Source of the DNA: Alphaproteobacteria bacterium
Lineage (GTDB): Bacteria; Pseudomonadota; Alphaproteobacteria; Rs-D84
NCBI GenBank assembly: GCA_017524525.1
Contig: JAFXVM010000001.1
Coordinates: 7,256-71,255, forward strand
Length of the DNA stretch: 64,000 bases
Reading direction: 5' to 3'
Shown here: positions 1,501-16,170 of the stretch, piece after piece
Layout: each line of letters starts with the position of its first letter
Numbering within the stretch: the first letter of the stretch is position 1
Position numbers and translations under genes: made by a program
The notes under the pieces: model-generated
The model's input: only the letters and a program-made list of their open reading frames with translations
Told to the model about the DNA's origin: nothing
Database searches by the model: none

Positions 1501-1843
1501 GAAGACATCTTATCAAATTGGATTGTATTCTGAATTTATCGCCAGAATGTATCTGCGTTTTCATGGGTACAAAATATTAAAAAGTCGCTATGTGACAGGT
1601 AAAAATACTAATCGCGCAGAAATAGACATCATCGCAAAACATAAAAACACAATCGTTTTTGTTGAAGTCAAATATCGAAAAGATGTTTCTGCGGCATGGG
1701 ATGCGATAACACCAACACAAGCCGCACGATTGCGTCGCGCCGCAGAAACTTATTTAATCAAAACCAGATGGACAGGTGATGCGCGCTTTGATGTAATCGT
1801 AGTATGTGGGTCCAAAATACATTGGGCTAAAAATGCAATTTAA
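1490..1843 (+). CDS. yraN: YraN family (UPF0102) endonuclease-like protein
   Basis: 117 aa from ATG 1490. Typical YraN core: EIDIIAK...IVFVEVKYR...ARFDVIVV. The longer ORF from 1397 overlaps the upstream gene and is unlikely to be the true start. Confidence 0.75.
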   Translation: MLSKKTSYQIGLYSEFIARMYLRFHGYKILKSRYVTGKNTNRAEIDIIAKHKNTIVFVEVKYRKDVSAAWDAITPTQAARLRRAAETYLIKTRWTGDARFDVIVVCGSKIHWAKNAI

Positions 1844-2100
1844 TTTTTTATAACTGCACTTTTAATCAAAGTCACATCTTCTTTGATTCCATCTATTTTT
1901 AATTGCAATTGTCCAATACCAGATTCCAGCATAGTCGTTCTGTTTTCAAGTGCTGTGATGCGCTGTTCTTGGCGTTCAATTTCAGCAACATATGAATCTT
2001 GGCGAGCAACCCAATAAATCATACCTGCAATAAATACTATTAAAAACCAACTATCACGCAAAGCATCTAAAAAAGATAAAAAATTTTGTTGTTTTGCCAT
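1840..2100 (-). CDS. Small membrane/coiled-coil protein, last gene of the phage-like locus
   Basis: 86 aa from ATG 2100 (the ORF track begins at a GTG at 2106). One TM helix (WFLIVFIAGMIYWV) then heptad-like ERQEQRITALENRTTMLES. Confidence 0.4.
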   Translation of the reverse strand: MAKQQNFLSFLDALRDSWFLIVFIAGMIYWVARQDSYVAEIERQEQRITALENRTTMLESGIGQLQLKIDGIKEDVTLIKSAVIKN

Positions 2101-2148
2101 CAGCACATCAATAATTTACCATAAAATATACGATGACACATTTGTATA

Positions 2149-2349
2149 TTATGTTGGATTATTGCCTCTTTTTATAAAATTTTCTATTTGATGAATCAAC
2201 GCATTCTGTGCAGCCCACCAACGCAAATCATCATTTGTTATATTTGGTCCAACAATGCGCTCTACGGTTATAGAACGCAAATGAGCCAACACTTGTTTTC
2301 CGCTCGCACTTAAAAAAGTACGAGCGTATTGTTTTTCAATATCTTTCAT
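2149..2349 (-). CDS. Small phage-associated protein
   Basis: 66 aa, 4 nt downstream of the portal gene. Small conserved proteins occupy this position in BPP-1/T7-supergroup podoviruses. The family cannot be verified here. Confidence 0.4.
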   Translation of the reverse strand: MKDIEKQYARTFLSASGKQVLAHLRSITVERIVGPNITNDDLRWWAAQNALIHQIENFIKRGNNPT

Positions 2350-2353
2350 AAAG

Positions 2354-3583
2354 TTATCCTTGGATTAACATTTCTTCTTGAGCCATTTGAGCAATAGGTG
2401 CAATGTATTTTAATTCTGCATCACTGTGCAAAGATATTTTTTCTATCAAACCGCGACGAGATAATATCTGCAATCCACGTTCACACAAAGGCTTTATGAA
2501 TTCGTGCAACAGTCTGCCGTATGTTGCCCCCAAGATTCGCACCATATCAGAATTACGCGCCAAAATTTCAGTAGCAGTCATTTCTTTGTCAGACAACAGT
2601 CCAAGTCTGTCTGCCAGCAAAGAATGCCTTATTCTGTCGCGCAAATCGCGCAGTATAATTTGAGAAACATCAAAATCGGCTCCGCTGGATAATGGCGTTA
2701 ATCCTGAACTGCCAACTGCTTTTGGTATAATTGCCCCAGGTGTTAAATTAATGTTAGATAAATTGATAACACCATCATCATCTGCCTGCCAGATACCGCT
2801 GACCGCGATGGTCGCATTTTTTAGAACTAATTCTACAACTTTGTTCGCTGTTTTTATATCTGGCAAAGCACGCAAAACAGGTCCACGACCATAAAGTTCC
2901 CCGCTTACCAAAGACCAACGAAAGATTATATACGGATTAGTTTCAAATGTACCACGCGCCACTATGTTATTCTCTATATCGTCACCAACATCTATCCACG
3001 CCGTAAAATCTTTGCCAATTAAAGACTGAACTAATCTTATCGGTGTTTCCGGATTTGTTTTTATTGTGTCTTTCATGTGAGCCGGCATAGTTATATTTGG
3101 ATACTTTTCCATTAAATCACATGCAGGTAATGATGTGGTATGGAATATCGCATTTGGCAATATCGCTATGTCTTTCATCGGTATAGATGTAAAAGAAAAA
3201 GCAGAAGATGCTCCTATGGGGTTTTCTGCCATGAACAAACACGCCGTACCTAAAACGACCAAATCTATATAACACTGATGAATTGTTGTATAAAAATTTG
3301 AATCATTTAAATGCGCACGCAATACTGATGTTGCAATTTCTGCATTTGGTGATTCGTCGCTTTCGCGAACCAGATTTATCCAAAGCGATTCTGGCGGCGT
3401 TAACAAGGAATACATAGATGCAGCCAAATTATCTACGGCATCCGCTGCAGTTGCATCAAATAATGTGGCAGATTCTGTATCATCTGTGGGAATTGTATAA
3501 CGCATGGCAGATTTCCATCTGGACAGCCATACTTCACGTTCGTCCAACGCACGTTTATATAATTGCATAAGATTTTTTTGCAT
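2354..3583 (-). CDS. Phage portal (head-to-tail connector) protein
   Basis: 409 aa. Lies directly downstream of the terminase nuclease fragment (14-nt gap). Size and position fit a podovirus connector. Called from synteny plus general resemblance. Confidence 0.55.
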   Translation of the reverse strand: MQKNLMQLYKRALDEREVWLSRWKSAMRYTIPTDDTESATLFDATAADAVDNLAASMYSLLTPPESLWINLVRESDESPNAEIATSVLRAHLNDSNFYTTIHQCYIDLVVLGTACLFMAENPIGASSAFSFTSIPMKDIAILPNAIFHTTSLPACDLMEKYPNITMPAHMKDTIKTNPETPIRLVQSLIGKDFTAWIDVGDDIENNIVARGTFETNPYIIFRWSLVSGELYGRGPVLRALPDIKTANKVVELVLKNATIAVSGIWQADDDGVINLSNINLTPGAIIPKAVGSSGLTPLSSGADFDVSQIILRDLRDRIRHSLLADRLGLLSDKEMTATEILARNSDMVRILGATYGRLLHEFIKPLCERGLQILSRRGLIEKISLHSDAELKYIAPIAQMAQEEMLIQG

Positions 3584-3597
3584 ATATTTTCCTTTTT

Positions 3598-4449
3598 TTA
3601 TAACAGACTAAAATCTGTTTTTGCTTTGATAAGACTGGTACGTTGACCCAGTGGCCTTGTCGGCCAAGGCTCCATTGTCAAAGCCCCAGCCAACGCATCC
3701 AGCCCGTCATCGTGTTCCACAGAACCAATCGGCGTCCAAGCCAACATTTCTGATAACAACATTGTTTTTTTGATTTTTTCATGCATATAAAAATGCCCTG
3801 TTGTTAACATCGGTTCTATGGCGTTTAAAATTCTTGTTTCTTTCTTTATATGATTTGATATTTGAATTATGTTTATTAACATCTGCTCTTGTTGAGCTTC
3901 GGTCCTGATTATTTCAGGCAACGCATTACCCAGCCCATTTATTTCTATGCCGATTCTAATTAAAAAGTGTTTTTTCATAAAATCTAATACTGTTTTACAC
4001 TGATTCGCTAGTGGATACAAATCGTCATCTGGCACAGATATATAAAGAATATCGTGTACAAAGATATCTCGATTTTTGTCATCTCGATAAACCAAAACAC
4101 AAACGCTGCCATCAGAATTATTTCTGCCAACCGAAGGATCCCAATAAAAACTGACACCTGATATACGATGATCGCCTATTTTACAGAAACGTTTATCAAA
4201 TTCTTCGTCATAAAAATTAATGGCACCAGGATCAAGATGGACACGCTCTTCTGCGATGTATTCCAGCAGCATTTGAGCAGAAAAATGTCGATGACCAACC
4301 ATTGTTTCCAATTCATGAATTTTTTCAAGCGGAAACATCTCTGGCCACGCCGGATTTCCGCTACTATCTATGATTGGGATTTTTAATTGTTTATATCCAC
4401 TTAAAAAAGGTGTTGAATTATCAAAATTTTCGTTTAATCTAAAAGACAT
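3598..4449 (-). CDS. Terminase large subunit, C-terminal nuclease-domain polypeptide (separate gene)
   Basis: 283 aa with its own ATG. RNase-H-like terminase nuclease motifs are present: FYWDPSVGRNNSDGSVCVLV, IGIEINGLGN and EHDDGLDALAGAL. It has no ATPase motifs. Confidence 0.7.
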   Translation of the reverse strand: MSFRLNENFDNSTPFLSGYKQLKIPIIDSSGNPAWPEMFPLEKIHELETMVGHRHFSAQMLLEYIAEERVHLDPGAINFYDEEFDKRFCKIGDHRISGVSFYWDPSVGRNNSDGSVCVLVYRDDKNRDIFVHDILYISVPDDDLYPLANQCKTVLDFMKKHFLIRIGIEINGLGNALPEIIRTEAQQEQMLINIIQISNHIKKETRILNAIEPMLTTGHFYMHEKIKKTMLLSEMLAWTPIGSVEHDDGLDALAGALTMEPWPTRPLGQRTSLIKAKTDFSLL

Positions 4450-5992
4450 GGACTTTACCCCTAAATCTTTACCTGTTAATTTAGAAGCAGAACAAGCGGT
4501 TCTTGCTGCGGTGTTGATGAATAATCGCGCACTAGAATCTGTGTCGGACTTTTTGTTGCCTGAACACTTTTCACATGCTGCGCACCAAGAAATTTATAAG
4601 TTGGCTTTACGTCAGTTTGCTATTGGGATTCCTTTTGACATCATTACAGCAAAAACATATCTTGAACAACAAGGTATACTGGAAAGCGTGGGCGGTGTTG
4701 AATACCTGTCTAAATTGACCGCTGCGGGCGCAACAGTTGTTAATGTTGAACATTATGGTCGTATCGTTTTTGATAATGCTCGCCGTCGTGATTTGATAAG
4801 TCTGGGCCAAAACATTATTGATGATGCATACACCGAAGATTTGGATAAACCTGTTAATACACAAATAGAATCTGCTGAACAGAAACTGTTTAATTTGGCT
4901 TCAACTGGGCAAAGCGAACGCAATATCGTCACACTGGCTGACGCATTAAAAAGCGCAATGCAAGAAGCAGAAATTGCATACAAAGCAGACGGCAAATTGT
5001 CTGGTTTAACGACCGGTTTAGACGATTTAGATAAATCTATCAGTGGTTTACACCATTCCGATTTGATAATTATTGCTGGGCGTCCTGCTATGGGAAAAAC
5101 CACACTGGCGCTTAACATCGCGTTTAATGCTGCCAATGCTATATTAAATGGTCGCGCAAATCAGCAATACAAAGGTGCTGTCGCGTTTTTCAGTTTGGAA
5201 ATGTCTTATCCACAATTGGCTGCACGTATATTGTCTTCTCAATCAAAAATACCATCTTCTCGCATGCGCGAAGGGAGCAATTTGACAGACGAAGATTTTA
5301 TGAAAATGTCTCAATATACGGACGCTTTGTCAAAAGTGCCTATTGTTATTGACGACACTTCTGAAATGTCTGTTCCTGGGGTAAAAACACGTGCGCGTCG
5401 CATAGCCCGCAAATTCGGTGGAATTGCGCTTATTGTCATTGACTATTTGCAATTGATGACTGTCCCTGGTGGGAAACGCAACGACAACCGCGTTCAAGAA
5501 TTGTCTGAAATTACTCGTGGATTAAAAATCTTGGCCAAAGAATTAGATGTTCCTGTGATTGTGTTGTCCCAGTTGTCTCGTAAGGTCGAAGATCGTGACG
5601 ACAAACGACCAATTTTATCAGATTTGCGTGAATCTGGTTCTATTGAACAAGACGCGGATATTGTCATGTTTACTTACCGCGAAGAATATTATCTAGAAGG
5701 ACATTCCCCAGACAAACGCTTATCCGGTCTTACGTCCGATAATGCTATGCAGGCGTGGCAAAAACGTATGGATTTGTCCAGAAACAAAGCCGATGTTATC
5801 ATCGCTAAAAACCGCCACGGAAAACCTGAAACTGTACATTTAAGTTTCTTTGGCGAATATTCGTTGTTTGATAATTTACAGCATTATCAACAAATACCAG
5901 ACCAAGATTTTGACAATCAAATTCCACAATCGACAGATACAAACTCACAAACAGTGGTCGATATTAATGATATTCCTGACGACATTATTTAA
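4448..5992 (+). CDS. dnaB: Replicative DNA helicase DnaB
   Basis: 514 aa from ATG 4448. N-terminal NLEAEQAVLAAVLMNN, Walker A GRPAMGKTT, Walker B LIVIDYLQLM, LSQLSR, and RESGSIEQDADIV. Carries an acidic ~45 aa C-terminal tail. Confidence 0.9.
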   Translation: MDFTPKSLPVNLEAEQAVLAAVLMNNRALESVSDFLLPEHFSHAAHQEIYKLALRQFAIGIPFDIITAKTYLEQQGILESVGGVEYLSKLTAAGATVVNVEHYGRIVFDNARRRDLISLGQNIIDDAYTEDLDKPVNTQIESAEQKLFNLASTGQSERNIVTLADALKSAMQEAEIAYKADGKLSGLTTGLDDLDKSISGLHHSDLIIIAGRPAMGKTTLALNIAFNAANAILNGRANQQYKGAVAFFSLEMSYPQLAARILSSQSKIPSSRMREGSNLTDEDFMKMSQYTDALSKVPIVIDDTSEMSVPGVKTRARRIARKFGGIALIVIDYLQLMTVPGGKRNDNRVQELSEITRGLKILAKELDVPVIVLSQLSRKVEDRDDKRPILSDLRESGSIEQDADIVMFTYREEYYLEGHSPDKRLSGLTSDNAMQAWQKRMDLSRNKADVIIAKNRHGKPETVHLSFFGEYSLFDNLQHYQQIPDQDFDNQIPQSTDTNSQTVVDINDIPDDII

Positions 5993-6060
5993 ATTTTTCT
6001 TGCCAAGTCTCTAAAAATTGACTATGATTTTGTCAACAACAGATTCCAAGGAGTTTGATT

Positions 6061-7068
6061 ATGGCACAAGAAGAAATAATATTTCCTAATAATATCCGCA
6101 ATATTCGTGCATCGAAAGGGATGAAAATGACGGAATTAGCAAGACGTGCTAATTTATCTTTGTCCGCGGTTTCCAAGATTGAAAAAGGTGTTCGTCGTCT
6201 TAATCAAAAACAATTATTAAATGTATGTACCATTTTGGGTTGCAAACTTTCTGATATATTTATTCACGAATCAGATGCAGTTGCACAAAACTGGCAAAAC
6301 GAAATTAAACGCCGTTTAACAGATAATGAAGACAGCGGTTTGAAAGTGTTCGGTTCTGGTTTACGCAAGATTCGTCAACGTTCCGAAAAAACTATTGCTG
6401 ATGCCGCTAAGGCTGCAAAAATGACTTTGTCTGTATACCATAAAATCGAAGTGGGTCAGCGCGAAGTTTACCAAGACGAAATTGAAGTTTTGGCAAAAGC
6501 ATTCGGTTATACTGTGCAACAATTGTTCAGTGAAATTGCCCAATTATATAATTCTGGCGAATTAACAAAGCAGATAAACAAGGTTACTGAACGTGTAAAA
6601 TCTGTATTAGAACCAGGTAATCCTGTATCTGGATTAGATGTTCACGGTGGTTTGTATGGTGCACAATTATACGATAATGCGCGCAAAAAATTAGTTCCTG
6701 TATTTGGAACACCAGACGGCAAAAGTATCAAATTCAAAAAATCTGATGAAACTATGATTGTTGCTCCTACGATGGTAGAAGGCCGCAGTGGTATTTATGC
6801 TGTTTTACCAAATTCAAAGCGTGTATCTGGCTTTATTCCTGAAACAGCATATGTTTTTGCAGATTCTGCTTTGGAACCAAAGGTCGGTGATTTGGCAGTT
6901 TGTATTGATGATGATTTTTCAAAAATGAAATCTGATACTGTAAGCACTGCACAAATCGTTCTGGTTCGCAAAGACAGTCATGGCAAAATCTATGGACACG
7001 TTGCGAACCCAGAAGAAAAAGTTATTGGCAAAACTATGCACAAAGTCATTATGATTGTTATGCAATAA
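6061..7068 (+). CDS. Tandem XRE-type HTH regulator with CI/LexA-like C-terminal domain
   Basis: 335 aa from ATG 6061, with AAGGAG 8 nt upstream. Two HTH_XRE modules (IRNIRASKGMKMTELARRANLSLSAVSKIEKG and LRKIRQRSEKTIADAAKAAKMTLSVYHKIEVG). The ~150 aa C-terminal beta-rich domain starts LVPVFG, like S24-type repressors. Catalytic Ser/Lys residues are not confirmed. Confidence 0.6.
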   Translation: MAQEEIIFPNNIRNIRASKGMKMTELARRANLSLSAVSKIEKGVRRLNQKQLLNVCTILGCKLSDIFIHESDAVAQNWQNEIKRRLTDNEDSGLKVFGSGLRKIRQRSEKTIADAAKAAKMTLSVYHKIEVGQREVYQDEIEVLAKAFGYTVQQLFSEIAQLYNSGELTKQINKVTERVKSVLEPGNPVSGLDVHGGLYGAQLYDNARKKLVPVFGTPDGKSIKFKKSDETMIVAPTMVEGRSGIYAVLPNSKRVSGFIPETAYVFADSALEPKVGDLAVCIDDDFSKMKSDTVSTAQIVLVRKDSHGKIYGHVANPEEKVIGKTMHKVIMIVMQ

Positions 7069-7092
7069 TTAATTACCAAACGGAGAGAGACC

Positions 7093-7734
7093 ATGCCACA
7101 ACAAGCCCATATAATCGCACAAAGATTATTGAATCTTTATCGCCAAGAACATGTTATTGAAGGGGGGTGGAGTGCTGTTAATAAAATCTTTCTTGAAGAA
7201 GCAACAAACGACCAAATTATCAACGAACTTCAAAATTTGCCCACAGGAAAAAAACTTGTCGCTCACATTGATAATTTGCGCAGTGGTAAAACCCCGATGG
7301 ATACCATAGACAAAGACTTGTTGCCATATGGCGGTTTAATGTCAGATCAAGAAATCACCTTTTCTTTGAATCCGGAAGAGATTGCAGAACTGAAAAACGC
7401 GCTTGATAAATTTGAACCTTCCCCGGAAAATTTAGCAGAAATTAAAAAGTTATCTTTCGTTCAAAAGTTTGGTACCGATTGGTCAAAAGACATCAAAGCA
7501 GCGCTTGTTTCTCATCCAGATATGCTTGAACAATGGAAAACAGTTATTCAAACAGACAAGGCTTATCAAACGTGGTATTCTGCCAAAGAATTGTTGTCTG
7601 ATACATTGACAGAACGTCATCGCGCTCAAATCCAAGCAGATATGCCCGAATATGAAACATTTTTACCTATGTTTGGTGAACAAGGCAAAGCGATGTTAAC
7701 CAAATTGCGAACATTTATGTCTTCTGTGGCTTAG
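7093..7734 (+). CDS. Hypothetical protein (third gene of the dnaB insert)
   Basis: 213 aa. GGAGAG RBS upstream. Its stop overlaps the stop of the convergent terminase ATPase gene. No family recognised. Confidence 0.45.
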   Translation: MPQQAHIIAQRLLNLYRQEHVIEGGWSAVNKIFLEEATNDQIINELQNLPTGKKLVAHIDNLRSGKTPMDTIDKDLLPYGGLMSDQEITFSLNPEEIAELKNALDKFEPSPENLAEIKKLSFVQKFGTDWSKDIKAALVSHPDMLEQWKTVIQTDKAYQTWYSAKELLSDTLTERHRAQIQADMPEYETFLPMFGEQGKAMLTKLRTFMSSVA

Positions 7735-8339
7735 TTTGTTTTATATATTGTGTCTTTTGTGTGTGGCGTCCCGATATAAATCATCGATCCGTGTGGCGAT
7801 AAAATAAAATCTAGTTCGCGCAACCTTTCGCGCAGATTTATTCTTTTTTGTTGTGTATTACATGTATTCGGTACTTCGACATCGTCGCATATTATCAAAT
7901 CAGATCTCATACCAGTAATATTTCCGGTGATACCTTGACATATAACTGACGGTTCTCGAATTCCAATGGGACGTTTAATTGTGATTTTATGAGTACCCCA
8001 TTCTTTTTTTACATCTGGTAAAATTTCACTGCAAAACGGATGATTTTCCAAAATGTTTTTGATATGCGACACCATTCGTGAAGCCAAACTTGATTCAGCA
8101 GATAATATTAATATTCGTGTTTCTGGTTTATGATATAAAACACATGCTGCAAAAACCCCAACTACCGTTGATTTCCCAGAATGTCGAAAAGCAGTCAACA
8201 ATCCACGACGCGGTTCATTGATAAAAACATCTACTAAAAATTCCATTATTTGTTTGTGATGTGCTGGGGTCGAAAAACCAAGGATATTGTTCCAACTGTC
8301 TAAAAAATCAAAGGCTTCCGTAATCGTCATTGTTTTCAT
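7731..8339 (-). CDS. Terminase large subunit, N-terminal ATPase-domain polypeptide (separate gene)
   Basis: 202 aa. Walker A FRHSGKST, Walker B DLIICDDVE, and coupling motif IYIGTPHTKDTIY. It ends 5 residues after that motif and has no nuclease domain. Confidence 0.75.
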   Translation of the reverse strand: MKTMTITEAFDFLDSWNNILGFSTPAHHKQIMEFLVDVFINEPRRGLLTAFRHSGKSTVVGVFAACVLYHKPETRILILSAESSLASRMVSHIKNILENHPFCSEILPDVKKEWGTHKITIKRPIGIREPSVICQGITGNITGMRSDLIICDDVEVPNTCNTQQKRINLRERLRELDFILSPHGSMIYIGTPHTKDTIYKTN

Positions 8340-8856
8340 TATTGGCTGCTTCTGTGACGTATCCGTAATCGTTTATCAAACTGGGCAAAGCGCTGTCTAA
8401 CACATTAAGCAAATTATTATAAAGCCCCAACACTGATCCGCCAGAAAGTTTATCTTCTATGGTTTGTAATGCATAATTTATTTGAGCCAACAAATTATCA
8501 TGAACATTAGCCCAAGAAGACAAATCTATATCTATATTATGCAAATCTTGAAATGCAGCCAACAAAAAATTAAAATCAGAATTTAAATCTTCTGGATCTA
8601 TTTTTTGGGTTGGTTGATAATCAATAGTTCGATTCAAAGACACCTGACGAAAAATATCTATGTGTTTACCAGATAACGGCGCAGAAGGAAACACAACCAG
8701 ACCACCATTAAAATCTTGATTAGGGTTCACATCATATTGCGTATTATCCAATAACACATTATCTATTGCTACTTTGATATCTGCGTTTTGAAAAAAAGGA
8801 AAGGAAAAAACGAATTCTGTGTTAATTCCATCTCCTGTGTATGAAATCTTATACAT
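8308..8856 (-). CDS. Short tail fibre/spike protein with T7-type N-terminal adaptor domain
   Basis: 182 aa. The N-terminus YKISYTGDGINTEFVFSFPFFQNADIKVAIDNVLL matches the usual pattern of podovirus tail-fibre N-domains. Confidence 0.5.
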   Translation of the reverse strand: MYKISYTGDGINTEFVFSFPFFQNADIKVAIDNVLLDNTQYDVNPNQDFNGGLVVFPSAPLSGKHIDIFRQVSLNRTIDYQPTQKIDPEDLNSDFNFLLAAFQDLHNIDIDLSSWANVHDNLLAQINYALQTIEDKLSGGSVLGLYNNLLNVLDSALPSLINDYGYVTEAANNENNDDYGSL

Positions 8857-8865
8857 AACATCCCC

Positions 8866-9213
8866 CTAGCCCGCTATTTTATCTATATTTGACAACCAAG
8901 TTTTTATTATGTTTGGTTTTTTCACTTTCGTTTTTTTAATTTTTTCTAAATTATCCTGTTTTTTTTCATCGTATGGTTGTGCAGTTTCTTCACGCAACCG
9001 CTGTAAAACTGCATTTTCAGAAAAGCTGTTTCCAGCATTACCATTTGCACCGAATTTTGCGCGTTGCGATGCTAACGCTTTTTTTATCAAATTTGTTTTA
9101 ATATTTTCATCTGCTGCAATTTGAGCCAAAATTTTTTGACGTTGATTTTCAGCGGTCTTTTTTGAATTATTGTAATCCAAGACTTTTGTCACATCTGATA
9201 CTAGTTGTCCCAT
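8866..9213 (-). CDS. Small basic virion-associated hypothetical protein
   Basis: 115 aa, K/Q-rich and probably helical. Lies between the nozzle and fibre genes. Confidence 0.35.
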   Translation of the reverse strand: MGQLVSDVTKVLDYNNSKKTAENQRQKILAQIAADENIKTNLIKKALASQRAKFGANGNAGNSFSENAVLQRLREETAQPYDEKKQDNLEKIKKTKVKKPNIIKTWLSNIDKIAG

Positions 9214-9230
9214 AAAAAACTCCTATTTTT

Positions 9231-10943
9231 TTATATTAAATACCAACCTTCTATTGACACAGATAATATTGTCGCTGGTAATTGTTCACTGCTTGAAATA
9301 GTCCACAAAGGTTCTATGGTGTTGCATTGTGTTCCTAATAAATTCATTGACAAATCACCAGTAAAACCAGAGTTGTTTTCGGCATATGCCCAATTAGGTA
9401 TTTCCATACGATAATTATTTACAAACATTGTTTTTGTTTTTATAACTCGGACAGAAATTTTTCTGGTTCTAATTTTTTTTGGGCAATGACCATTTACTAT
9501 AATTGGAAACGACGATACCTTGTAAGAAAATCCGTATGTATCTGCATCTTGTAATTTCGCATTATCAAATTTTTCAAGATATTGTGTATTATTCCTTTTG
9601 ACGATAACATAAGTTTCATTGCCAACAACAGCCACATATTTGAACAAACCATCTGTTTTATAGGTTCCCCATGCTGCAATATCTGTATTAGCATAATTAT
9701 GAAATACAGCCATAGAGCCATCTTCCATAATTAAAAATAATTTGTGTTTCACTGGATTATACGCGATGCTGGTCGGCTGGTTTAATAAATGTTTTGAAAA
9801 CACACATAAATCCGTCGCATTATATTTATTGTTCAAAGTATCTAAATCTAATTCTCGAATATCTTTACCAGATTGAGCAACAAATACAGTACTGCCTTCA
9901 ATTTGTTGTGGTGGCAAATATCTGCTTACAGTGCTACCTATGGCAGTATGTTTTTTTATATTAACATTTGATGGTGTTAGCGGTGTATTTGATATAGCCC
10001 ATTCGCCAGTAGAAGTTAATATTTGTAGCGCATCGCAACTAACCAAATTGCATATTTGATTGTGTTGTGCTGATAATAAAACAGTATATATTGCTTCGTC
10101 GTCTAAGCCTGTTCCTGTATCAAAGTTATTGTATTCGCCAACTTTAGACATCCAAATATTATTTGGTGCAGACGGAGTTCCCCCAAAAACTAACCTGTTT
10201 TGGTGAAAAGCGATAGTCATAGGCCAACCACGTCTTGTGTTAAAGGCGGCTTCAAACCAATCTGTTATAGGAGTAATTGGTATCGTAAAATCACCATTTG
10301 TATAAACTGTTGCTATGCGAGCGCTTTGAACAGATTCTACTATCCACTGTTTATTGTTGACTAATAATCTTACGTTTAACCACGTATTGTCCCACAAATC
10401 CGCGCTTGCAGTAAATGTTGCATGGTTATTATCTATGTTACTGGTCCCGATAGTGATAGAAATATCTTGTGTATCATCATAACGCATAAATGGTATATTC
10501 AAAGTAGTGTTTGAATTCATATAAAAACGAAATACACTCAAAGAAAAACCATTTGCGTTTTTTGTTAATATTTGTGGCGCATAGTTAGGATGCACAAAAA
10601 ACATTGTGTTAAATCTTTGAACGTATTGTAATTTATTCAAATCAGCACTATACCAAGGCGTGACAACTGTCGCTATTTTGTTGTCGTTATAATAGACATC
10701 TAACAATCTGTCGTAAAAAACTAGTAAATATTTTTCTGCATCATTAATTACAAACGGTACTAATATGGAATTATTTGCGATATTCTTTATCTTTTTTAAT
10801 CCTGGTCTGCGTTTCAAAGCCCCGGATTCTAATACATCCATATTTTCAAGTTTTGCTACACCATGAACAGTATTTATTGCATAAAATTCTGGGGCTACTT
10901 CGCCACTAGAAAAAACATTTTGTGTTTTAAGAAAATTTCCCAT
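9231..10943 (-). CDS. Tail tubular protein B / nozzle-like protein
   Basis: 570 aa and beta-rich. Located directly after the adaptor-like gene. N-terminal FSSGEVAPEFYA...LESGALKRRPGL is typical of podovirus nozzle/stabilisation proteins. Confidence 0.5.
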   Translation of the reverse strand: MGNFLKTQNVFSSGEVAPEFYAINTVHGVAKLENMDVLESGALKRRPGLKKIKNIANNSILVPFVINDAEKYLLVFYDRLLDVYYNDNKIATVVTPWYSADLNKLQYVQRFNTMFFVHPNYAPQILTKNANGFSLSVFRFYMNSNTTLNIPFMRYDDTQDISITIGTSNIDNNHATFTASADLWDNTWLNVRLLVNNKQWIVESVQSARIATVYTNGDFTIPITPITDWFEAAFNTRRGWPMTIAFHQNRLVFGGTPSAPNNIWMSKVGEYNNFDTGTGLDDEAIYTVLLSAQHNQICNLVSCDALQILTSTGEWAISNTPLTPSNVNIKKHTAIGSTVSRYLPPQQIEGSTVFVAQSGKDIRELDLDTLNNKYNATDLCVFSKHLLNQPTSIAYNPVKHKLFLIMEDGSMAVFHNYANTDIAAWGTYKTDGLFKYVAVVGNETYVIVKRNNTQYLEKFDNAKLQDADTYGFSYKVSSFPIIVNGHCPKKIRTRKISVRVIKTKTMFVNNYRMEIPNWAYAENNSGFTGDLSMNLLGTQCNTIEPLWTISSSEQLPATILSVSIEGWYLI

Positions 10944-10959
10944 TATGCAATCCTTTTTA

Positions 10960-11478
10960 TTAAAATCTTGAATTTATCAAGGAAAAACTATTTATATTTG
11001 ATTGATTCGAAGATGTACTGTCTATGAATTTAGCAGATTGATATTCTGATTCATACAAAGCCGTCATCATTTTAAAAACATTTGTGTCACCAATCAAAGG
11101 GATACAGAATTCTACTGCCAATTTGGTTGCAACTAATGTCGCAAAATACCCAGGAAAATCTTCTGGTGCAGTCTTTACAATCGCAGATACTTCCAAACTT
11201 TCCCCTGATGTGATTATTTTATTACCAATTATTTGTCCTTCACATTTTAATATACGCAATACATTTGCAGGTATAATAAAATCACCATTTGAATCTTTGG
11301 TTAAAATCAAAGTTTGTGTTGCAAATCGCCATGGGAACATTGCCAACAGAGTATCTGTTACGGAATCAAACAAAGTTCTTGATAATTGGGCAGATGCGGA
11401 ATCTTCTCGCCAAGATTGGATAGGTTTTTCACCCAATTTCAACAAAGCCATTGAACATAAATCTATTTTTGTAAACAT
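10960..11478 (-). CDS. Tail tubular protein A / head-tail adaptor-like protein
   Basis: 172 aa. N-terminal IDLCSMALLKLGEKPIQSW...AMFPWRFA is typical of podovirus gp11-like adaptors. Confidence 0.5.
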   Translation of the reverse strand: MFTKIDLCSMALLKLGEKPIQSWREDSASAQLSRTLFDSVTDTLLAMFPWRFATQTLILTKDSNGDFIIPANVLRILKCEGQIIGNKIITSGESLEVSAIVKTAPEDFPGYFATLVATKLAVEFCIPLIGDTNVFKMMTALYESEYQSAKFIDSTSSNQSNINSFSLINSRF

Positions 11479-11541
11479 ATCTTATACCTATTCATTAAAA
11501 ATGGGTCGCATTTGCGACCCATTGTGTAAGAAAAAACGCGT

Positions 11542-11772
11542 TTATGATAACGCACCTACTGTGACTACACCTTCTGCAACAGTAATCGCTTTGATTGTTG
11601 CTCCATCAGAGCCATTAATCAAAATAATATCACCTGTATTCATTAAGGTTTTTACGCTTGAAAAATAGCCAGATGCAATTATTGTCGCCAATGTAGCACT
11701 TTCTTTGTAGTGCCACAAAGTAAAACCATTAGCATATGCAATCACAGACAAGTTTTTATTTTGAAAAGCCAT
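11542..11772 (-). CDS. Small structural-module hypothetical protein
   Basis: 76 aa ORF directly downstream of the capsid gene. Confidence 0.35.
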   Translation of the reverse strand: MAFQNKNLSVIAYANGFTLWHYKESATLATIIASGYFSSVKTLMNTGDIILINGSDGATIKAITVAEGVVTVGALS

Positions 11773-11794
11773 TTTATTCCCTTTTGGTTATATG

Positions 11795-12622
11795 TTAAGC
11801 AGCATCGTCATCGCATTTGATACGAACAATACCTTCGTTATCAATCAAAACTGCACCCTGAGACATACTGTTGCTGATAAAGTGCGCAGCGCGTTCACCG
11901 TGCCATGTGATATCTGTTTTCACTTCTTGACCACATGCATGACCAATACTGGATGCATGGTACATAAAGCAATCACGGTCATCTCCGCTTGCCAAAGGAA
12001 GCGCGTTGCACAAAATCCAATTAACACCTAACCATTTTCTTGATTCACAACCGTCTACCAAAGGCAAAGAATTGCCAACATAATCAGCAGAAACAAATTC
12101 TGATATTTTTAACAATTCATTCCATTGATGAACACCAACAACTGCGAATCTACGGCCGTCATCTGGCACATCGTTTTCATTTAACTTTTCCAACGCAGCC
12201 ATAATAAGAGCTTTGGTTAAACCTGTGCTGTAATCACCAACATATTGAGTTGCGTTATTCATAGCGCCGATAATTAATTCATCTGTTTTGCGTCCCAAAG
12301 CATAAGCCCCAGCAGATGCAACAACACGACGTTCGTCTACATTGGTTTTCAATTCATCCAATGCATCAACCCAATCGCCAGCATAGTAATCTTGTAATGT
12401 ACATTCTACTGGCGTATGATTCAAATTCATCACAGGAACAATTCCATGACGAGATTTTGTACTGGCGATACCTTTGCCAACTTTTTGGAATGTTGTAGAA
12501 GCGCCAACCACTCCAGATTTGCTGCGAATTGTAGAGCGTAATTTTGTGCCCATTTGTTGATATGCTAAATGCACATCTGCTTCAAATTGTTTTATAAATA
12601 CTTGGTCTACAGACATAGACAT
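11795..12622 (-). CDS. Major capsid protein (HK97-fold type, small)
   Basis: 275 aa. Positioned after the scaffold gene. N-terminal FIKQFEADVHLAYQQMGTKLR pattern is seen in phage capsid families. AAAGGA RBS upstream. Confidence 0.55.
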   Translation of the reverse strand: MSMSVDQVFIKQFEADVHLAYQQMGTKLRSTIRSKSGVVGASTTFQKVGKGIASTKSRHGIVPVMNLNHTPVECTLQDYYAGDWVDALDELKTNVDERRVVASAGAYALGRKTDELIIGAMNNATQYVGDYSTGLTKALIMAALEKLNENDVPDDGRRFAVVGVHQWNELLKISEFVSADYVGNSLPLVDGCESRKWLGVNWILCNALPLASGDDRDCFMYHASSIGHACGQEVKTDITWHGERAAHFISNSMSQGAVLIDNEGIVRIKCDDDAA

Positions 12623-12794
12623 AAGAAATCCTTTTTGTTTAAGTTAACTGTGCCTTGTGGCATGAAAAAATTTTGATTGATGGTTATGCAAATAATGCGC
12701 CATTAAACAAAACATTACACACGGGTCCACAAAAATGGATTATCCAATAAAAAATTCAGTTAGACTTCTATCATCTAACTGAAAAATTTATCAT

Positions 12795-12825
12795 AAAAAA
12801 ATCCCCAAAATCTGCGATTCTGGGG
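12795..12825 (-). terminator. Intrinsic terminator after the K/A-rich gene
   Basis: On the minus strand: CCCCAGAATCGCAGATTTTGGGG hairpin followed by a T-run. Confidence 0.6.
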
Positions 12826-12848
12826 ACAAATAATTGATTAACTATTTA

Positions 12849-13142
12849 TTATTTTTTCTTTACTACTTTTTTAGCAGCTGGTTTTTTTGCAGCAACTTTT
12901 TTTGCAGGTGCTTTTTTAGCAACTGGTTTTTTTGCAACTACTTTTTTAGCAGCTGGTTTTTTTGCAGCAACTTTTTTTGCAGGTGCTTTTTTAGCAACTG
13001 GTTTTTTTGCAACTACTTTTTTAGCAGCTGGTTTTTTTGCAGGTGCTTTTTTAGCAACTGGTTTTTTTGCAGCAGGTTTTTTTGCAGCAGCTGGTTTAGC
13101 AGCTGTTTTTGTGCATCCACATTTTTTCTTTAAGCCGAACAT
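12849..13142 (-). CDS. Lysine/alanine-rich histone-H1-like basic protein
   Basis: 97 aa from ATG 13142, with AAGGAGAG 7 nt upstream. MFGLKKKCGCTKT followed by AKKPAAKK / VAKKPVAKKAPAKK repeats through to the C-terminus. Confidence 0.7.
   Translation of the reverse strand: MFGLKKKCGCTKTAAKPAAAKKPAAKKPVAKKAPAKKPAAKKVVAKKPVAKKAPAKKVAAKKPAAKKVVAKKPVAKKAPAKKVAAKKPAAKKVVKKK
12862..13090. repeat. 75-nt tandem repeat (about 3 copies) inside the K/A-rich gene
   Basis: The string actacttttttagcagctggttttttt recurs at 12862, 12937 and 13012. The period of 75 nt equals 25 codons. Confidence 0.85.
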
Positions 13143-13239
13143 AATTCTCTCCTTTCTATGTTTTCGGATAGAACAAAATTTTTTTGTTCTTGTTTTATAT
13201 TTTATATGAAAGAAAACAAATAGTAAAGAATAAAATGAA

Positions 13240-13896
13240 TTATGAATATAATTTTTTAAAACCATTTTCAATTTTTCTAACATACTCTTCATCATGATCG
13301 CGCCAATATTTTGGATCGCGCATCATATCACGCAGAACATCATCTGTTAAATTTTCTGTCGAACTTTTATTTGTTAAAACATCAGGTTCCATTGATTGCA
13401 TCATCTTGTATATACCTTGTATTCCCTGGGGTGTAGCGCACAATTCATCAAATGCATCTTTTGGTAAATATCTTTCACCAAACGCATTTATTTCACGTAA
13501 AGCATCTTTCATTTTTTCATCATCACCAAAAAAATTTTTCAATTCATTTATAGCATTCGTTTGATTTTGTAATTGAAATAAATTTTTTAATGTTGGTTGT
13601 AAAAATTCTTCTGCGATTGCATAAATTTGTTCAACTTGTTTTGAAGTTAAACCAATTTCATGAAATTTTTCGCGAACCGATTCGTCTTCAAACAAAGGAT
13701 TGATTGGATAATCAGCAGCACTATCTGGGACACCAATTGCATGATTAAACTTTTGTTTTGTTGCATCATCACTATCATCTTTTGGCAAAGATATCATGTT
13801 GCTCATTTTCTTTTCGAGTTCACAATATGATTTTACTAACGCAGATGTATTTAATTCACCTTTGTCATCTAGAAATTTTTCTGGAATTTGTTCCAT
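13240..13896 (-). CDS. Capsid scaffolding/assembly protein
   Basis: 218 aa from ATG 13896 (AAGGAAA RBS). Acidic and helical. MEQIPEKFLDDKGELNTSALVKSYCELEKK resembles podovirus scaffold N-termini. Lies upstream of the capsid gene. Confidence 0.5.
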   Translation of the reverse strand: MEQIPEKFLDDKGELNTSALVKSYCELEKKMSNMISLPKDDSDDATKQKFNHAIGVPDSAADYPINPLFEDESVREKFHEIGLTSKQVEQIYAIAEEFLQPTLKNLFQLQNQTNAINELKNFFGDDEKMKDALREINAFGERYLPKDAFDELCATPQGIQGIYKMMQSMEPDVLTNKSSTENLTDDVLRDMMRDPKYWRDHDEEYVRKIENGFKKLYS

Positions 13897-14086
13897 TAGA
13901 TTTTCCTTTGGTTGAAGATTCTTGTTTAAGAAAATAAATGCCCCCCAATGTGAATATTGTTTGCAGCATTGAAAACACATCTGCATCACCAACAAGATAT
14001 GCGCCCACAGCAGATACAATACCGACACTGGAAATAACATAAGTTTTACGATTTTGTAAATAACCGCCTTTGATTATTTTGTTCAT
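13865..14086 (-). CDS. Small membrane protein, holin candidate
   Basis: 73 aa with two hydrophobic segments (VISSVGIVSAVGAYLV and LQTIFTLGGIYFL). Lies immediately after the hydrolase gene. Confidence 0.4.
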   Translation of the reverse strand: MNKIIKGGYLQNRKTYVISSVGIVSAVGAYLVGDADVFSMLQTIFTLGGIYFLKQESSTKGKSNGTNSRKISR

Positions 14087-14103
14087 GAAAATCCTTTTGT
14101 TAT

Positions 14104-14514
14104 TTATAAATAATAAAGTATGTCTTCACATTCAAATATATAACCACGCGCAACTGCCCATTGTGGCATAACATCTGTGTGATGAAATTTAGTTGCGCCA
14201 AAAACACTGTCGCGTAAATTACCATGCAACATAGTTTTAACAACCCGCAAACACATTTGAAGCCTTCTGTCTTTTGTATCCACAGACAAAAATTTTTTTC
14301 GCGGAGAAAAATGATTTAAAGAGTCGAAAATATTTTTATCCGTTGCAATATCTTCAAAAGACTTTTTATATTTAACATGAATGTTATATATCATAGATGC
14401 CATTGCTTCAACAGCCTGCAAAGATACACCTTTTGTCTCAGCAAATATGATTCGTGCTAATTTATACGGTACAATTTGTGTATCGTCTGGATTGTTTATT
14501 AAAAATAGTTGCAT
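14104..14514 (-). CDS. SleB-type cell wall hydrolase (endolysin candidate)
   Basis: 136 aa. LARIIFAETKG...AVEAMASMIYN...FHHTDVMPQWA matches the Hydrolase_2/SleB pattern. Confidence 0.6.
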   Translation of the reverse strand: MQLFLINNPDDTQIVPYKLARIIFAETKGVSLQAVEAMASMIYNIHVKYKKSFEDIATDKNIFDSLNHFSPRKKFLSVDTKDRRLQMCLRVVKTMLHGNLRDSVFGATKFHHTDVMPQWAVARGYIFECEDILYYL

Positions 14515-14537
14515 GGTTTTACCTGTGTTGTGTTAAT

Positions 14538-14565
14538 AAAAAAACCGCACAGCAAATGCGTGCGG
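14538..14565 (-). terminator. Intrinsic terminator 2 in the leader of the phage-like operon
   Basis: On the minus strand: CCGCACGCATTTGCTGTGCGG followed by TTTTTTT. Confidence 0.65.
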
Positions 14566-14581
14566 AAAAAAACACAAGAAT

Positions 14582-14604
14582 AAAAAAACCGCCCATCATG
14601 GCGG
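14582..14604 (-). terminator. Intrinsic terminator 1 (after birA, in the leader of the phage-like operon)
   Basis: On the minus strand: CCGCCATGATGGGCGG followed by TTTTTTT. Confidence 0.65.
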
Positions 14605-14631
14605 ACAGAATTTCTATTCTTGATGTTGTGT

Positions 14632-14660
14632 ATGATATCACAAATTGACATGAAAGTCAA
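14632..14660 (-). promoter_or_regulatory. Sigma70-like promoter facing the phage-like operon
   Basis: On the minus strand: TTGACT (14660-14655), a 17-nt spacer, then TATCAT (14637-14632). The -35 lies inside a TTGAC-N6-GTCAA palindrome (14645-14660). Confidence 0.45.
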
Positions 14661-15350: not shown

Positions 15351-15741
15351 TCTCGTTTAATATAAAATCGTGTCCATATTTTTTACGCAATTGATAAACA
15401 GCATTTTCAACTGTGTGAGTTGTTATATCTGGCAAGAAACCGATATTTTCTTTTAATTCACGCATAGATATATTTGGATTTTTATATAATGAAACAACAA
15501 TTTTGCGTTGTAAAATCGGCAAAATAATATAATGCCCAAAAACAGCGATGATAACATCATGATAATCAAGACACTCAAAAATAATTTTTTTTAAGTCATC
15601 AACATAAACAGGCGCATTTGTAGCAACATCATCAAAAACCACATCCGCAGTATTTTGATTATCAACCACAATTGCACCCAAATCAGCAAAAATATGCTGC
15701 CAATACCTATCAGACGAATAAATCTTGATATTATCTAACAT
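15322..15741 (-). CDS. Winged-helix (OmpR/PhoB C-terminal type) DNA-binding protein without recognisable receiver domain
   Basis: 139 aa. C-terminal ISMRELKENIGFLPDITTHTVENAVYQLRKKYGHDFILNENGKYKIG resembles the trans_reg_C domain. Confidence 0.45.
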   Translation of the reverse strand: MLDNIKIYSSDRYWQHIFADLGAIVVDNQNTADVVFDDVATNAPVYVDDLKKIIFECLDYHDVIIAVFGHYIILPILQRKIVVSLYKNPNISMRELKENIGFLPDITTHTVENAVYQLRKKYGHDFILNENGKYKIGHL

Positions 15742-16034: not shown

Positions 16035-16170
16035 TTTCTTTTTCTCCCTAGGCTTAGTTTTCCAATTCAACACTTTGATAATACGCTATTTTTCACATTT
16101 TGTTGAATAGTTTGTTTTCCTAGGCAAAAAAGCAAAAAAATATACAAAAAAATTTTTTTTGACAAAATAC

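Follow-up and report, generated by a model that had tools for sequence, protein, structure and literature searches.

Gene transfer agents and related phage-derived systems

Gene transfer agents (GTAs) of the RcGTA type (Rhodogtaviriformidae; Rhodobacter capsulatus, Caulobacter, Dinoroseobacter) are encoded by phage-derived clusters of head, tail and packaging genes that are fixed in alphaproteobacterial chromosomes, inherited vertically, kept under purifying selection and free of integration and replication genes. The same can be said of a locus on the minus strand between the host genes yraN and birA in a 64,000-nucleotide stretch of DNA (the window) from Candidatus Enterousia (assembly GCA_017524525.1, contig JAFXVM010000001.1, positions 7,256 to 71,255). 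Candidatus Enterousia belongs to Rs-D84, an uncultured order of gut and rumen Alphaproteobacteria with genomes of 0.75-1.0 Mb that lack the tricarboxylic acid cycle and a respiratory chain (PMC12306168). The locus spans 12.7 kb. Its genes specify a complete head made of scaffold, capsid, decoration-like protein and portal, a short tail of adaptor and nozzle that may or may not carry a fibre, a packaging enzyme of the T7 type, and a lysis pair. A sequence-only reading had put it forward as a candidate domesticated, GTA-like particle system. Domestication is well supported by the conservation and selection data given below; the steps that lead from a selected locus to one that packages host DNA and transfers it are ones that we infer.

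The likeness to RcGTA would extend to lysis-dependent release, recipient-dependent delivery and tight regulation. The two are nevertheless unrelated in evolutionary origin and in morphology. RcGTA has a long tail, a prohead protease, an HK97 gp5-type capsid, a tape measure and a small terminase (TerS), whereas the Enterousia locus has a T7-type scaffold, adaptor, nozzle and fibre, a large terminase (TerL) of the T7 gp19 type and no TerS; its Pfam and PHROG matches are to a T7-type scaffold and TerL, a PF19821 capsid, an adaptor and a nozzle, with neither prohead protease nor tape measure among them. The named carriers of the present family are Rhodospirillales-type lineages and Rs-D84.

The BaGTA of Bartonella is likewise a domesticated particle system of host-associated Alphaproteobacteria with reduced genomes. 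Its capsid operon has a promoter followed by a leader and terminator that are read through by a Q21-like processive antiterminator (bioRxiv 10.1101/2024.11.20.624540). The attenuating leader or terminator behind a promoter is matched in layout by the promoter and tandem terminators of the Enterousia locus. BaGTA has a different phage ancestry, however, together with a run-off replication module and the Q21-like antiterminator BrrG, neither of which was found here.

A podovirus-like GTA-like element, FpGTA, was reported in 2026 from Faecalibacterium prausnitzii, and its particles of ~40 nm with 8.5-9 kb of DNA have been shown experimentally (PMC12946183). It shares with the Enterousia locus a gut bacterium as host, short-tailed-phage genes and a compact operon of ~10 kb. 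Compared by description only, it differs in its Firmicutes host, its TerS-like gene and its two separate operons that include baseplate and receptor-binding protein genes. No other GTA-like element with podovirus-type genes is reported in the literature searched, and the host of FpGTA belongs to an unrelated phylum. Full-text searches turned up no account of a locus like the present one in Rs-D84/Enterousia, Acetobacteraceae, Roseomonas, Azospirillum or Rhodospirillales. The earlier supposition that a short-tailed, structural-only locus would be undescribed can be kept for a T7-type alphaproteobacterial family, and has to be given up in its general form because of the FpGTA precedent (PMC12946183).

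Among phages, the closest solved capsid, portal and nozzle are those of Legionella phage LME-1 (9EG4/9EFK), a temperate phage of T7-like morphology in which a small decoration gene likewise stands between capsid and adaptor, with the nozzle gene next. As a complete prophage, LME-1 can be induced and packages its own genome, whereas the Enterousia locus is immobile, lacks integration, replication and ejection genes, and is flanked in the window by host-type genes (yraN; birA, trmA and lpxI). Homologues of the T7 scaffold (gp9), portal (gp8), adaptor (gp11), nozzle (gp12), fibre N-terminus (gp17) and terminase (gp19) make up a T7-type structural and packaging module. Unlike T7 and other Autographiviridae, the locus has no RNA polymerase, no DNA polymerase or primase-helicase, no gp13-16 core (and so no gp14-16) and no TerS gp18; its sole helicase gene is a cellular-type dnaB, its capsid belongs to PF19821 rather than gp10, and its TerL is split. 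Capsid-forming phage-inducible chromosomal islands (PICIs) and other satellites resemble it as compact elements of ~10-15 kb with their own capsid and packaging genes, but their integrase, replication genes, att sites, mobility and hijacking of helper tails have no counterpart found here.

Conservation and inheritance of the locus

Capsid homologues number in the thousands. The nearest (82-98% identity) come from metagenome-assembled genomes of rumen, horse, yak, pig and human gut, named 'Alphaproteobacteria bacterium' or 'Candidatus Enterousia'. A capsid scan of one genome per species of the Genome Taxonomy Database (GTDB) gave at least 572 relatives, the best 80 of which are all of Enterousia type and serve as the comparison set; one of them is a circular chromosome of 958,618 bp. 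Metagenome contigs with the same gene order were found besides. The genome of the window itself was inspected over these 64 kb. Ratios of non-synonymous to synonymous substitution (dN/dS) are Nei-Gojobori estimates from pairs with dS < 1 only.

Gene order is identical to that of the window in every locus long enough to judge (80 species). It begins with g93, g139, birA, the hydrolase, the membrane protein, the scaffold, a K/A-rich gene, the capsid, g76, the adaptor, the nozzle and g115, and continues with the fibre where present, TerL-N, an insert (g213, XRE, dnaB), TerL-C, the portal, the Bbp19-like gene, g88 and yraN (Table 1). The birA gene adjoins the locus in 71 of 85 loci, always where the sequence covers that flank, and many relatives that reach this side also show the host-type genes trmA and lpxI; yraN is found in the 18 loci that cover the far flank. 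All 15 particle and lysis genes are intact and of the expected length in about 74-85 species, the fibre gene being the sole exception. The claim of intact open reading frames (ORFs) can be extended to the relatives, as no frameshifts were found in related loci. A full prophage contiguous with the locus was seen in none of the close relatives, and the same structural-only locus recurs in 80 species-level genomes.

Selection on the locus is purifying and not relaxed, and the refuting conditions named with the earlier reading have turned out to favour domestication. The dN/dS values run from 0.07 to 0.39, with 0.15-0.29 for the small proteins, scaffold, adaptor and TerL-C; among the host genes, LpxI has 0.095 and TrmA 0.17, beside the DnaB and BirA values in Table 1. 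Capsid (82-97% identity across the 80 species) and portal (74-93%) are more conserved than DnaB (65-88%), BirA (60-81%), TrmA or LpxI. Synonymous differences are near saturation (proportion of synonymous differences, pS, ~0.6-0.7), so the 80 genomes are not near-identical strains. Particle and host genes are correlated in their non-synonymous distances (Spearman 0.38-0.71) about as well as host genes are among themselves (0.48-0.73), and the GC content of the locus (0.35-0.36) is close to that of the rest of the window (0.363). The locus occupies one chromosomal site in at least 80 species and is inherited vertically, under purifying selection as strong as that on housekeeping genes. As a separate observation, median pS is lower for the capsid, K/A-rich and scaffold genes (0.53-0.62) than for others (~0.66-0.74). 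This points to additional constraint on their synonymous sites, perhaps through codon usage for high expression or through RNA structure.

These data bear directly on the idea that the locus is a cryptic, functionless prophage remnant that has not yet decayed. Such a remnant might be suspected from the interrupted TerL, the loss of the fibre in many species, the shortened portal and nozzle, the lack of any remaining TerS or ejection genes, and a related Azospirillum brasilense locus that has been struck by insertion sequence (IS) elements. It would nevertheless have to be reconciled with 15 intact genes (fibre excepted), with dN/dS of 0.07-0.39, invariant catalytic motifs and a capsid more conserved than DnaB, and with non-coding control elements conserved through compensatory changes. 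Moreover, the genomes are streamlined to <1 Mb, and one would not expect ~9.4 kb without function to be retained at genome sizes of 0.75-1.0 Mb. This explanation is hardly credible: the selection and conservation data exclude a decaying prophage and make a mobile element very unlikely.

Gene content and missing phage functions

Every element of the gene series that had been proposed between birA and yraN is present at its place on the minus strand, and profile searches, including hidden Markov models, confirm the virion identity of the ORFs (Table 1). The particle genes sum to ~9.4 kb, close to the ~9.5 kb first estimated. Packing is as tight as described, with overlaps or gaps of at most 63 nt except around the K/A-rich gene, where the two gaps measure 97 and 226 nt (given earlier as about 100 and 230 nt).

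Table 1. Features of the locus, its flanks and one related insertion (window positions unless a contig is named; the last column gives dN/dS).
Feature	Position	Strand	Evidence and remarks	dN/dS
yraN/UPF0102	1397-1843	+	Far flank of locus	
g88, 88 aa	1840-2106	-	Last gene of locus; N-terminal transmembrane segment (hydropathy, residues 18-35); coiled coil; weak phrog_736	0.17
Bbp19-like small phage protein	2149-2349	-	PF25181 E 1e-4; after portal gene, as in related loci	0.26
Portal, T7 gp8 type, 409 aa	2354-3583	-	PF12236 E 3e-79, profile positions 2-440 of 489	0.066
TerL-C, RNase H-like nuclease half	3598-4449	-	phrog_38 positions 468-712, E 1.5e-37	0.20
TerL-splitting insert	4448-7734	+	dnaB, XRE regulator, 213-aa protein; in all 80 loci	
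dnaB, cellular-type replicative helicase	4448-5992 (longest ORF from 4370)	+	NCBIfam equivalog NF006606, 600 bits vs cut-off 540	0.074
XRE-family regulator, 337 aa, double helix-turn-helix	6055-7068	+	HTH_3 twice	0.10
g213, conserved 213-aa protein	7093-7734	+	AlphaFold2 model all-helical, pLDDT 79	0.14
TerL-N, ATPase half of T7 gp19-type TerL	7731-8339	-	phrog_38 positions 275-459, E 1e-45; T7 gp19 4BIJ, E 6.5e-23	0.11
Short fibre, 182 aa	8308-8856	-	phrog_1640 E 1e-15; PF03906 weak; T7-type N-terminal attachment domain plus ~80 residues	0.12 where present
g115, 115 aa	8866-9213	-	Position of small internal virion protein	0.27
Nozzle, T7 gp12-like tail tubular protein B	9231-10943	-	phrog_376 E 2e-90; PDB 8CK1 (8ck1_A) 'Tail Nozzle', E 9e-31	0.11
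Adaptor, T7 gp11-like tail tubular protein A	10960-11478	-	phrog_394 E 3e-29	0.20
g76, 76 aa	11542-11772	-	phrog_18004 E 9e-13; sits where LME-1-type phages carry head-decoration gene	0.15
Major capsid protein, HK97 fold	11795-12622	-	PF19821 E 3e-74; phrog_3437 E 5e-74	0.09
Structured capsid leader, ~180 nt	12623-12800	-	Hairpins A, B, C (and a fourth in most species)	
K/A-rich histone H1/Hc2-like basic protein	12849-13142	-	Pfam HC2 E 2e-14; NCBIfam H1-like families below cut-off	0.25
Scaffold, T7 gp9 type	13240-13896	-	PF05396 E 2e-7, 31.8 bits vs gathering cut-off 27.1; phrog_3742	
73-aa membrane protein (holin candidate)	13865-14086	-	Hydropathy; hydrophobic residues 16-33; directly after endolysin gene	0.29
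SleB/Hydrolase_2-type cell-wall hydrolase (endolysin)	14104-14514	-	phrog_938 endolysin E 6e-8; Pfam Hydrolase_2 weak, E 1e-3	0.39
Two tandem intrinsic-terminator hairpins with U-runs	14545-14608	-	Leader between promoter and hydrolase start	
Sigma-70-type promoter	14632-14660	-	TTGACT-17-TATCAT, extended -10 (TGnTATCAT); directly after birA stop codon	
birA	14667-15350	-	Near flank of locus	0.17
g139	15322-15741	-	Overlaps birA start by 29 nt	
g93, 93-aa Cro/CI-type helix-turn-helix protein	15792-16073	-	Pfam HTH_26 E 5e-4; upstream of birA	0.09
A. brasilense scaffold-capsid junction inserts	L170 6700-9580; L171 3581-6461		Host signalling genes	

The earlier claim that integration, replication, TerS and ejection genes are missing is borne out for the locus ORFs: profile searches among them gave no match to an integrase, excisionase, polymerase, primase, RNA polymerase, TerS or large internal virion protein, and no replication initiator was found. 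Ten further unassigned ORFs of the window have no phage-structural match, and no att-like direct repeats flank the locus.

These absences bear on the view of the locus as a selfish or mobile element, that is, a minimal prophage or a satellite of the PICI or capsid-forming PICI kind that spreads horizontally and borrows replication from its host or a helper. Regulators of the CI/XRE type and a DnaB-family helicase gene are indeed carried by many phages too, the IMG/VR database lists fragments of the locus and of its relatives as viral contigs, and a 'Bacteriophage sp.' record (MT838907) has related genes in phage order. Yet an integrase, excisionase, primase, replication initiator and att repeats are all lacking, the same order is kept in 80 species with birA adjoining wherever that flank is covered, divergence tracks that of host genes, and composition is that of the host. 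The dnaB gene passes the cellular equivalog cut-off and not that of phage_DnaB, and the IMG/VR entries are predictions from gene content rather than evidence of particles. A mobile element therefore appears improbable.

Most of the structural genes can be followed into relatives or solved structures. The hydrolase, with its weak Pfam match, has orthologues with clear Hydrolase_2 matches in related loci (L168, L169, L170), and it is intact in 74 loci. The 73-aa membrane protein has one strong and one weaker hydrophobic segment and a charged C-terminus. The longest ORF of the scaffold gene runs from 14040, and the likely start is 13896, at a conserved MEQIPEKF that gives 218 aa; relatives' gene calls are 218-220 aa. 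For the capsid, the closest solved structure is that of LME-1 (9EG4, E 8.5e-40), a T=7 head of ~60 nm. The g76 protein matches the LME-1 decoration protein orf16 (9eg4_H) weakly, at E 0.07, and the adaptor has a weak match to the 'Connector protein' 8ck1_E. The nozzle is shortened to 570 aa and matches LME-1 orf18 (9efk_M) at E 5e-17. The portal is without the C-terminal 60-140 residues found in relatives, and its PDB matches are LME-1 orf12 (9efk_A) and T7 portals.

PHROG and Pfam searches found no family match for g115 itself; the 146-aa protein at its position in Pseudoroseomonas matches phrog_418 'internal virion protein' (E 4e-8). The Bbp19 family also adjoins the portal in Azospirillum and in the contig MT838907.1 (L087). 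The stop codon of g88 overlaps that of yraN, and from its predicted features g88 is a candidate spanin-like or holin-associated protein. Profile-profile comparisons of g76, g115, Bbp19, g88 and the 73-aa membrane protein with the Acetobacteraceae proteins a147, a155, a77, a146, a114 and a119 gave no link above 50% probability.

The fibre gene is present in 35 of ~82 related loci (L001 13430-14396) and cleanly absent from ~47. Because both states occur in near and far sub-clades, it has been lost or gained repeatedly.

The K/A-rich gene, which lies between scaffold and capsid, contains 14 copies of a 15-nt period and has a GC content of only 6% at third codon positions. It is present in 76 loci and absent from those of Acetobacteraceae. 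A terminator follows it (12827-12801), and promoter-like sites precede it at 13350-13322 and 13227-13199, one of them inside the 3' end of the scaffold gene. With these signals on either side, the gene appears to be transcribed as a unit by itself. It probably encodes a host-type nucleoid protein and was inserted at the scaffold-capsid junction, though the protein might have a role within the particle. This junction carries foreign genes in two lineages, the K/A-rich gene in Enterousia and genes for a PAS-GGDEF-EAL sensor and a PRC-barrel protein in A. brasilense.

The split terminase

The opposite-strand insert that had been noted inside TerL is indeed there, and its content can now be named: a cellular-type dnaB, a double helix-turn-helix XRE regulator and a 213-aa protein. 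It separates TerL at the domain linker. The two halves are collinear with the unsplit 480-aa TerL of Acetobacteraceae, with no residues missing and few extra ones at the junction. Both halves retain their active sites: the Walker A, Walker B and GTPH motifs of TerL-N are invariant in 79 species, as are the three acidic nuclease motifs (D/E/D) of TerL-C in 78. TerL-C has its own Shine-Dalgarno sequence and ATG and lies head-to-head with the dnaB start. Within the window, no repeats were found flanking the insert that could excise it and restore an intact gene. The helicase passes the cellular equivalog cut-off while failing that of phage_DnaB. In a distant relative whose capsid is 74% identical (L106 5385-9871), TerL is split at the same place, and the insert there holds dnaB with an 834-aa ORF in place of XRE and g213.

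Control elements and regulators

The promoter proposed after birA is real in the comparative sense. It has 10 of 12 matches to the consensus plus the TG extension, and it is kept in 72 of 72 related loci as TTGACTTT..ATTTGTGATATTAT. Its spacer contains a TTGAC..GTCAA inverted repeat, a possible operator or Q-binding-type element. The hydrolase leader that follows has exactly two terminator hairpins in 56 of 72 loci, with stem sequences that are unrelated between loci. The layout, in which a promoter leads through terminators into lysis genes and then structural genes, resembles lambdoid late operons and the BaGTA capsid operon.

The second control region is the capsid leader. Hairpin A has the form TTCAGTYAGA..TCTRACTGAA followed by a U-run, hairpin B is GGATAA[TCCN..NGGA]CCC and hairpin C is TGGC[GCA..TGC]ATAACCA; a fourth, terminator-like hairpin precedes the ribosome-binding site in most species, and two of the hairpins are terminator-like. 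The single-stranded motifs GGATAA, CCC, TGGC and ATAACCA are conserved. RNAalifold applied to an alignment of 32 species (A2) gave 26 pairs, 21 of them with compensatory changes. Pairing holds in 96.2% of alignment cells, against 85.5% in shuffles (0 of 500 reaching it) and 22-45% when the partners are slid. No Rfam family matched, and the leader is a candidate new cis-regulatory RNA that may act by attenuation or antitermination. When its motifs were sought upstream of other genes as shared operators, they were found only here. A sigma-54 promoter before the capsid gene (TGGCGC-N5-TTGC) was considered and rejected: the GG-GC spacing varies between 12 and 15 nt across species and the inner bases covary, so the site is a hairpin and not a -24/-12 promoter. 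Upstream of TerL-C there are no terminators, and no promoter was identified for TerL-C, the portal and the two genes downstream.

Several proteins were considered as regulators. The g93 protein, with a median identity of 87% across species, is clearly homologous to the N-terminal, DNA-binding part of the S24 (LexA/CI-like) repressor encoded beside the Acetobacteraceae and Azospirillum loci (hhalign probability 99.9, E 4e-32, 75 columns), and the alignment makes it a candidate repressor that has lost its autocleavage domain. A search for an S24 peptidase fold in the C-terminus of the XRE regulator gave an hhalign probability of 1%; its PDB matches are limited to the helix-turn-helix part, and its single-sequence AlphaFold2 model was unusable (pLDDT 36). 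As a Q-like antiterminator, g139 was set aside: its C-terminus reads like a winged helix of the BirA/OmpR type, a domain that other bacteria have fused to BirA, and its PDB matches are non-significant. We treat it as a birA-linked host gene, perhaps for a BirA repressor domain that has become separate and carries additional N-terminal sequence. Nor could g213 be retained as a Q21/BrrG-like protein, since a Foldseek search of the PDB with its all-helical model gave no match with E <= 0.001.

Related loci outside Enterousia

Many 'viral' contigs of ~12-13 kb in IMG/VR carry the same genes at 25-60% identity. These compact loci belong to Acetobacteraceae (Roseomonas, Teichococcus/Pseudoroseomonas, Belnapia, Siccirubricoccus, Falsiroseomonas and others), whose capsids share 79-95% identity among themselves and are encoded on chromosomal contigs of 3-6 Mb. 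Azospirillum, Rhodospira/Roseospira, Thalassospiraceae and other Rhodospirillales likewise have close homologues of the capsid. The loci of Pseudoroseomonas cervicalis and Belnapia begin with lysS-mprF and a divergent S24 CI/LexA-like repressor, after which come three small genes, portal, scaffold, capsid, adaptor, nozzle, an internal-virion-protein homologue, a 760-aa pectate-lyase tailspike, a small gene in the TerS position, an unsplit TerL, a further small gene and Hydrolase_2; no integration or replication genes were found in these two loci. An S24 repressor accompanies the structural-only loci of Pseudoroseomonas, Belnapia and Azospirillum. Chromosomal surroundings are partly shared, with lysS-mprF upstream in two genera and DUF952 downstream in two families (A. 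brasilense and Pseudoroseomonas).

The gene set that defines the family (portal, T7 scaffold, PF19821 capsid, adaptor, nozzle, small internal protein, fibre or tailspike, T7-type TerL, Hydrolase_2 and CI-type helix-turn-helix regulator) is shared at 23-63% identity by L115, L119-L162 and L168-L171. The Enterousia members differ from the others in gene order, in the split TerL, in the loss of the S24 domain and in the host genes embedded in the locus. In the portal tree, Enterousia is sister to the compact-locus group and apart from phage contigs of 25-40 kb, a picture that the capsid tree gives less clearly. For the high-GC loci of Acetobacteraceae type, dN/dS is 0.33-0.59, values that were obtained with no host-gene control and under strong GC bias at third codon positions and are uninformative.

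Some of these sequences are filed as viruses. MT838907.1, a 5-kb 'Bacteriophage sp.' sequence from human faeces, has related genes, with a capsid at 63%, that run portal, Bbp19, scaffold, capsid, g76, adaptor, nozzle. Pieces of the Enterousia locus, although chromosomal, are entered in IMG/VR (L088-L105) as uncultivated viral genomes. Among complete phages the best capsid match, Pelagibacter phage EXVC031P (44%), has an unrelated TerL and large internal proteins and was dismissed as a structural cousin only.

GTA-like particles with ~10 kb of DNA were reportedly described from Azospirillum by Boyer et al. in 2008. An Azospirillum comparative-genomics paper ascribes the ~10-kb particles of A. 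lipoferum to RcGTA-like regions. The same paper gives as the sole phage-related core gene a 'phage-related lysozyme' without phage neighbours; this gene may be the hydrolase of the present family, an identity that could not be checked.

Proposed origin and function

Among the known classes, what is found corresponds most nearly to a GTA: structural, packaging and lysis genes in the chromosome, no autonomous replication, integration or excision, and vertical inheritance under purifying selection. We hold, with moderate confidence, that the locus is the domesticated and vertically inherited remnant of a temperate podophage of T7 morphology, LME-1-like, which the host maintains as its own particle system of the GTA kind. 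A broader proposal is put forward more tentatively, namely that the loci represent an ancient second alphaproteobacterial GTA family, unrelated to RcGTA and derived from a temperate phage of T7 morphology, whose Rs-D84 branch has a split terminase, is interlocked with dnaB and birA and is gated by terminator read-through. Host-type genes are interleaved with the locus at three places: dnaB, birA (between g93 and the hydrolase) and the H1-like gene.

In this model, an LME-1-like temperate podophage would have been captured, once or a few times, in an alphaproteobacterial ancestor and stripped to its particle, packaging and lysis genes. The Rs-D84 branch would then have streamlined it further, to a portal of 409 aa, a nozzle of 570 aa and a fibre of 182 aa or none, with the gene in the TerS position gone and the repressor cut to its helix-turn-helix part, and would have rearranged it to become interleaved with dnaB, birA and the H1-like gene. 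The promoter after birA would fire into the two tandem terminators, and the terminator-rich leader would guard the genes from the capsid to TerL-N, so that the locus is normally off. Processive antitermination or de-repression could switch it on in a few cells, and g93, the XRE regulator or both could take part. TerL-C, the portal and the two downstream genes, which lie beyond the insert, must in this scheme have a start of their own.

Procapsids would be assembled on the T7-type scaffold, and TerL-N and TerL-C would associate non-covalently on the portal to cut and package host DNA by the headful. The lack of TerS would mean that packaging has no sequence specificity, as we propose; it is compatible with random packaging of host DNA and proves nothing. 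The producer cell would be lysed by the hydrolase and holin. Since ejection proteins of the gp14-16 type are lacking, the DNA would get no further than the periplasm of a recipient cell, which would have to take it up and recombine it with machinery of its own, as with RcGTA. Occasional, DNA-filled, short-tailed particles released by lysis fit the data best, because the TerL active sites, the portal, the tail and a lysis cassette behind an insulated promoter are all maintained.

Purifying selection shows that there is a function and not which one it is. The main rival to the GTA-kind reading is that the locus was domesticated for something other than DNA transfer, with particles or their parts kept for another benefit to the host. 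These could include programmed lysis that releases DNA or nutrients to kin or partners, capsids that stay empty or act as decoys, a capsid that encloses the K/A-rich nucleoid protein or some other cargo, or titration or poisoning of the assembly of infecting podophages. A system that no longer needs to inject DNA would fit the absence of ejection proteins and, in over half of the species, of the fibre. The lysis genes come first behind the conserved promoter, and in 76 loci the head module encloses the gene for a basic, H1-like protein. However, strong constraint acts on the ATPase and nuclease sites of TerL and on portal, adaptor and nozzle, which would be difficult to account for without DNA packaging and the building of a tail. 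The fibre is constrained wherever it is present, and the K/A-rich gene, with its own terminator and promoter-like matches, is missing from the Acetobacteraceae loci. A use without DNA transfer is therefore considered rather unlikely.

Several points weigh against the GTA-kind reading itself. Neither particles nor packaged DNA nor transfer has so far been observed in any member of the family. The fibre, absent in over half of the Enterousia species and 182 aa long in the rest, weakens the case for receptor-dependent delivery. TerL consists of two polypeptides encoded 3.3 kb apart, and to our knowledge no working precedent for this has been demonstrated. No TerS is recognisable among the locus ORFs, and no antiterminator was identified among the candidates, g139 looking like a winged helix of the BirA type and g213 having no known fold. 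If the T=7 head of ~60 nm has been kept, one headful could hold the whole 12.7-kb locus, and the rule that a GTA cannot package its own genes may fail here. Finally, in the A. brasilense contigs examined, transposase genes of IS families replace or truncate the portal (L170 875-3419; L171 513-2418), although A. rugosum (L115) has an intact one. Decay is thus under way in part of the wider family.

Implications and neighbouring genes

If the particles are made and carry host DNA, they would represent a new, independently domesticated GTA lineage and the first of T7 type in Alphaproteobacteria. They would then also provide a route of gene exchange for abundant, uncultured gut and rumen bacteria with genomes of <1 Mb, in which recombination should help to escape genome decay. 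The proposal is testable, as homologous loci lie beside an S24 repressor of the SOS-cleavable type in the cultivable Pseudoroseomonas/Roseomonas, Belnapia and Azospirillum. The split terminase, kept in all Enterousia-type loci examined, is a natural test of ATPase and nuclease domains working as separate chains. The listing of host loci as viruses in IMG/VR and GenBank inflates virus counts in gut viromes.

Two further observations concern other genes of the window. At 19230-21124, a VirB11/T2SSE-type ATPase gene is followed by two paralogous genes of 138-146 aa, and the ATPase gene is found near the locus in related genomes too. Among the other ORFs of the window that were tested, the only one with a PHROG match encodes a 379-aa protein (31523-32662, minus strand) with the Fic motif HPFNDGNGRTGR; it matches phrog_5978 (E 2e-85) and is not a virion protein.

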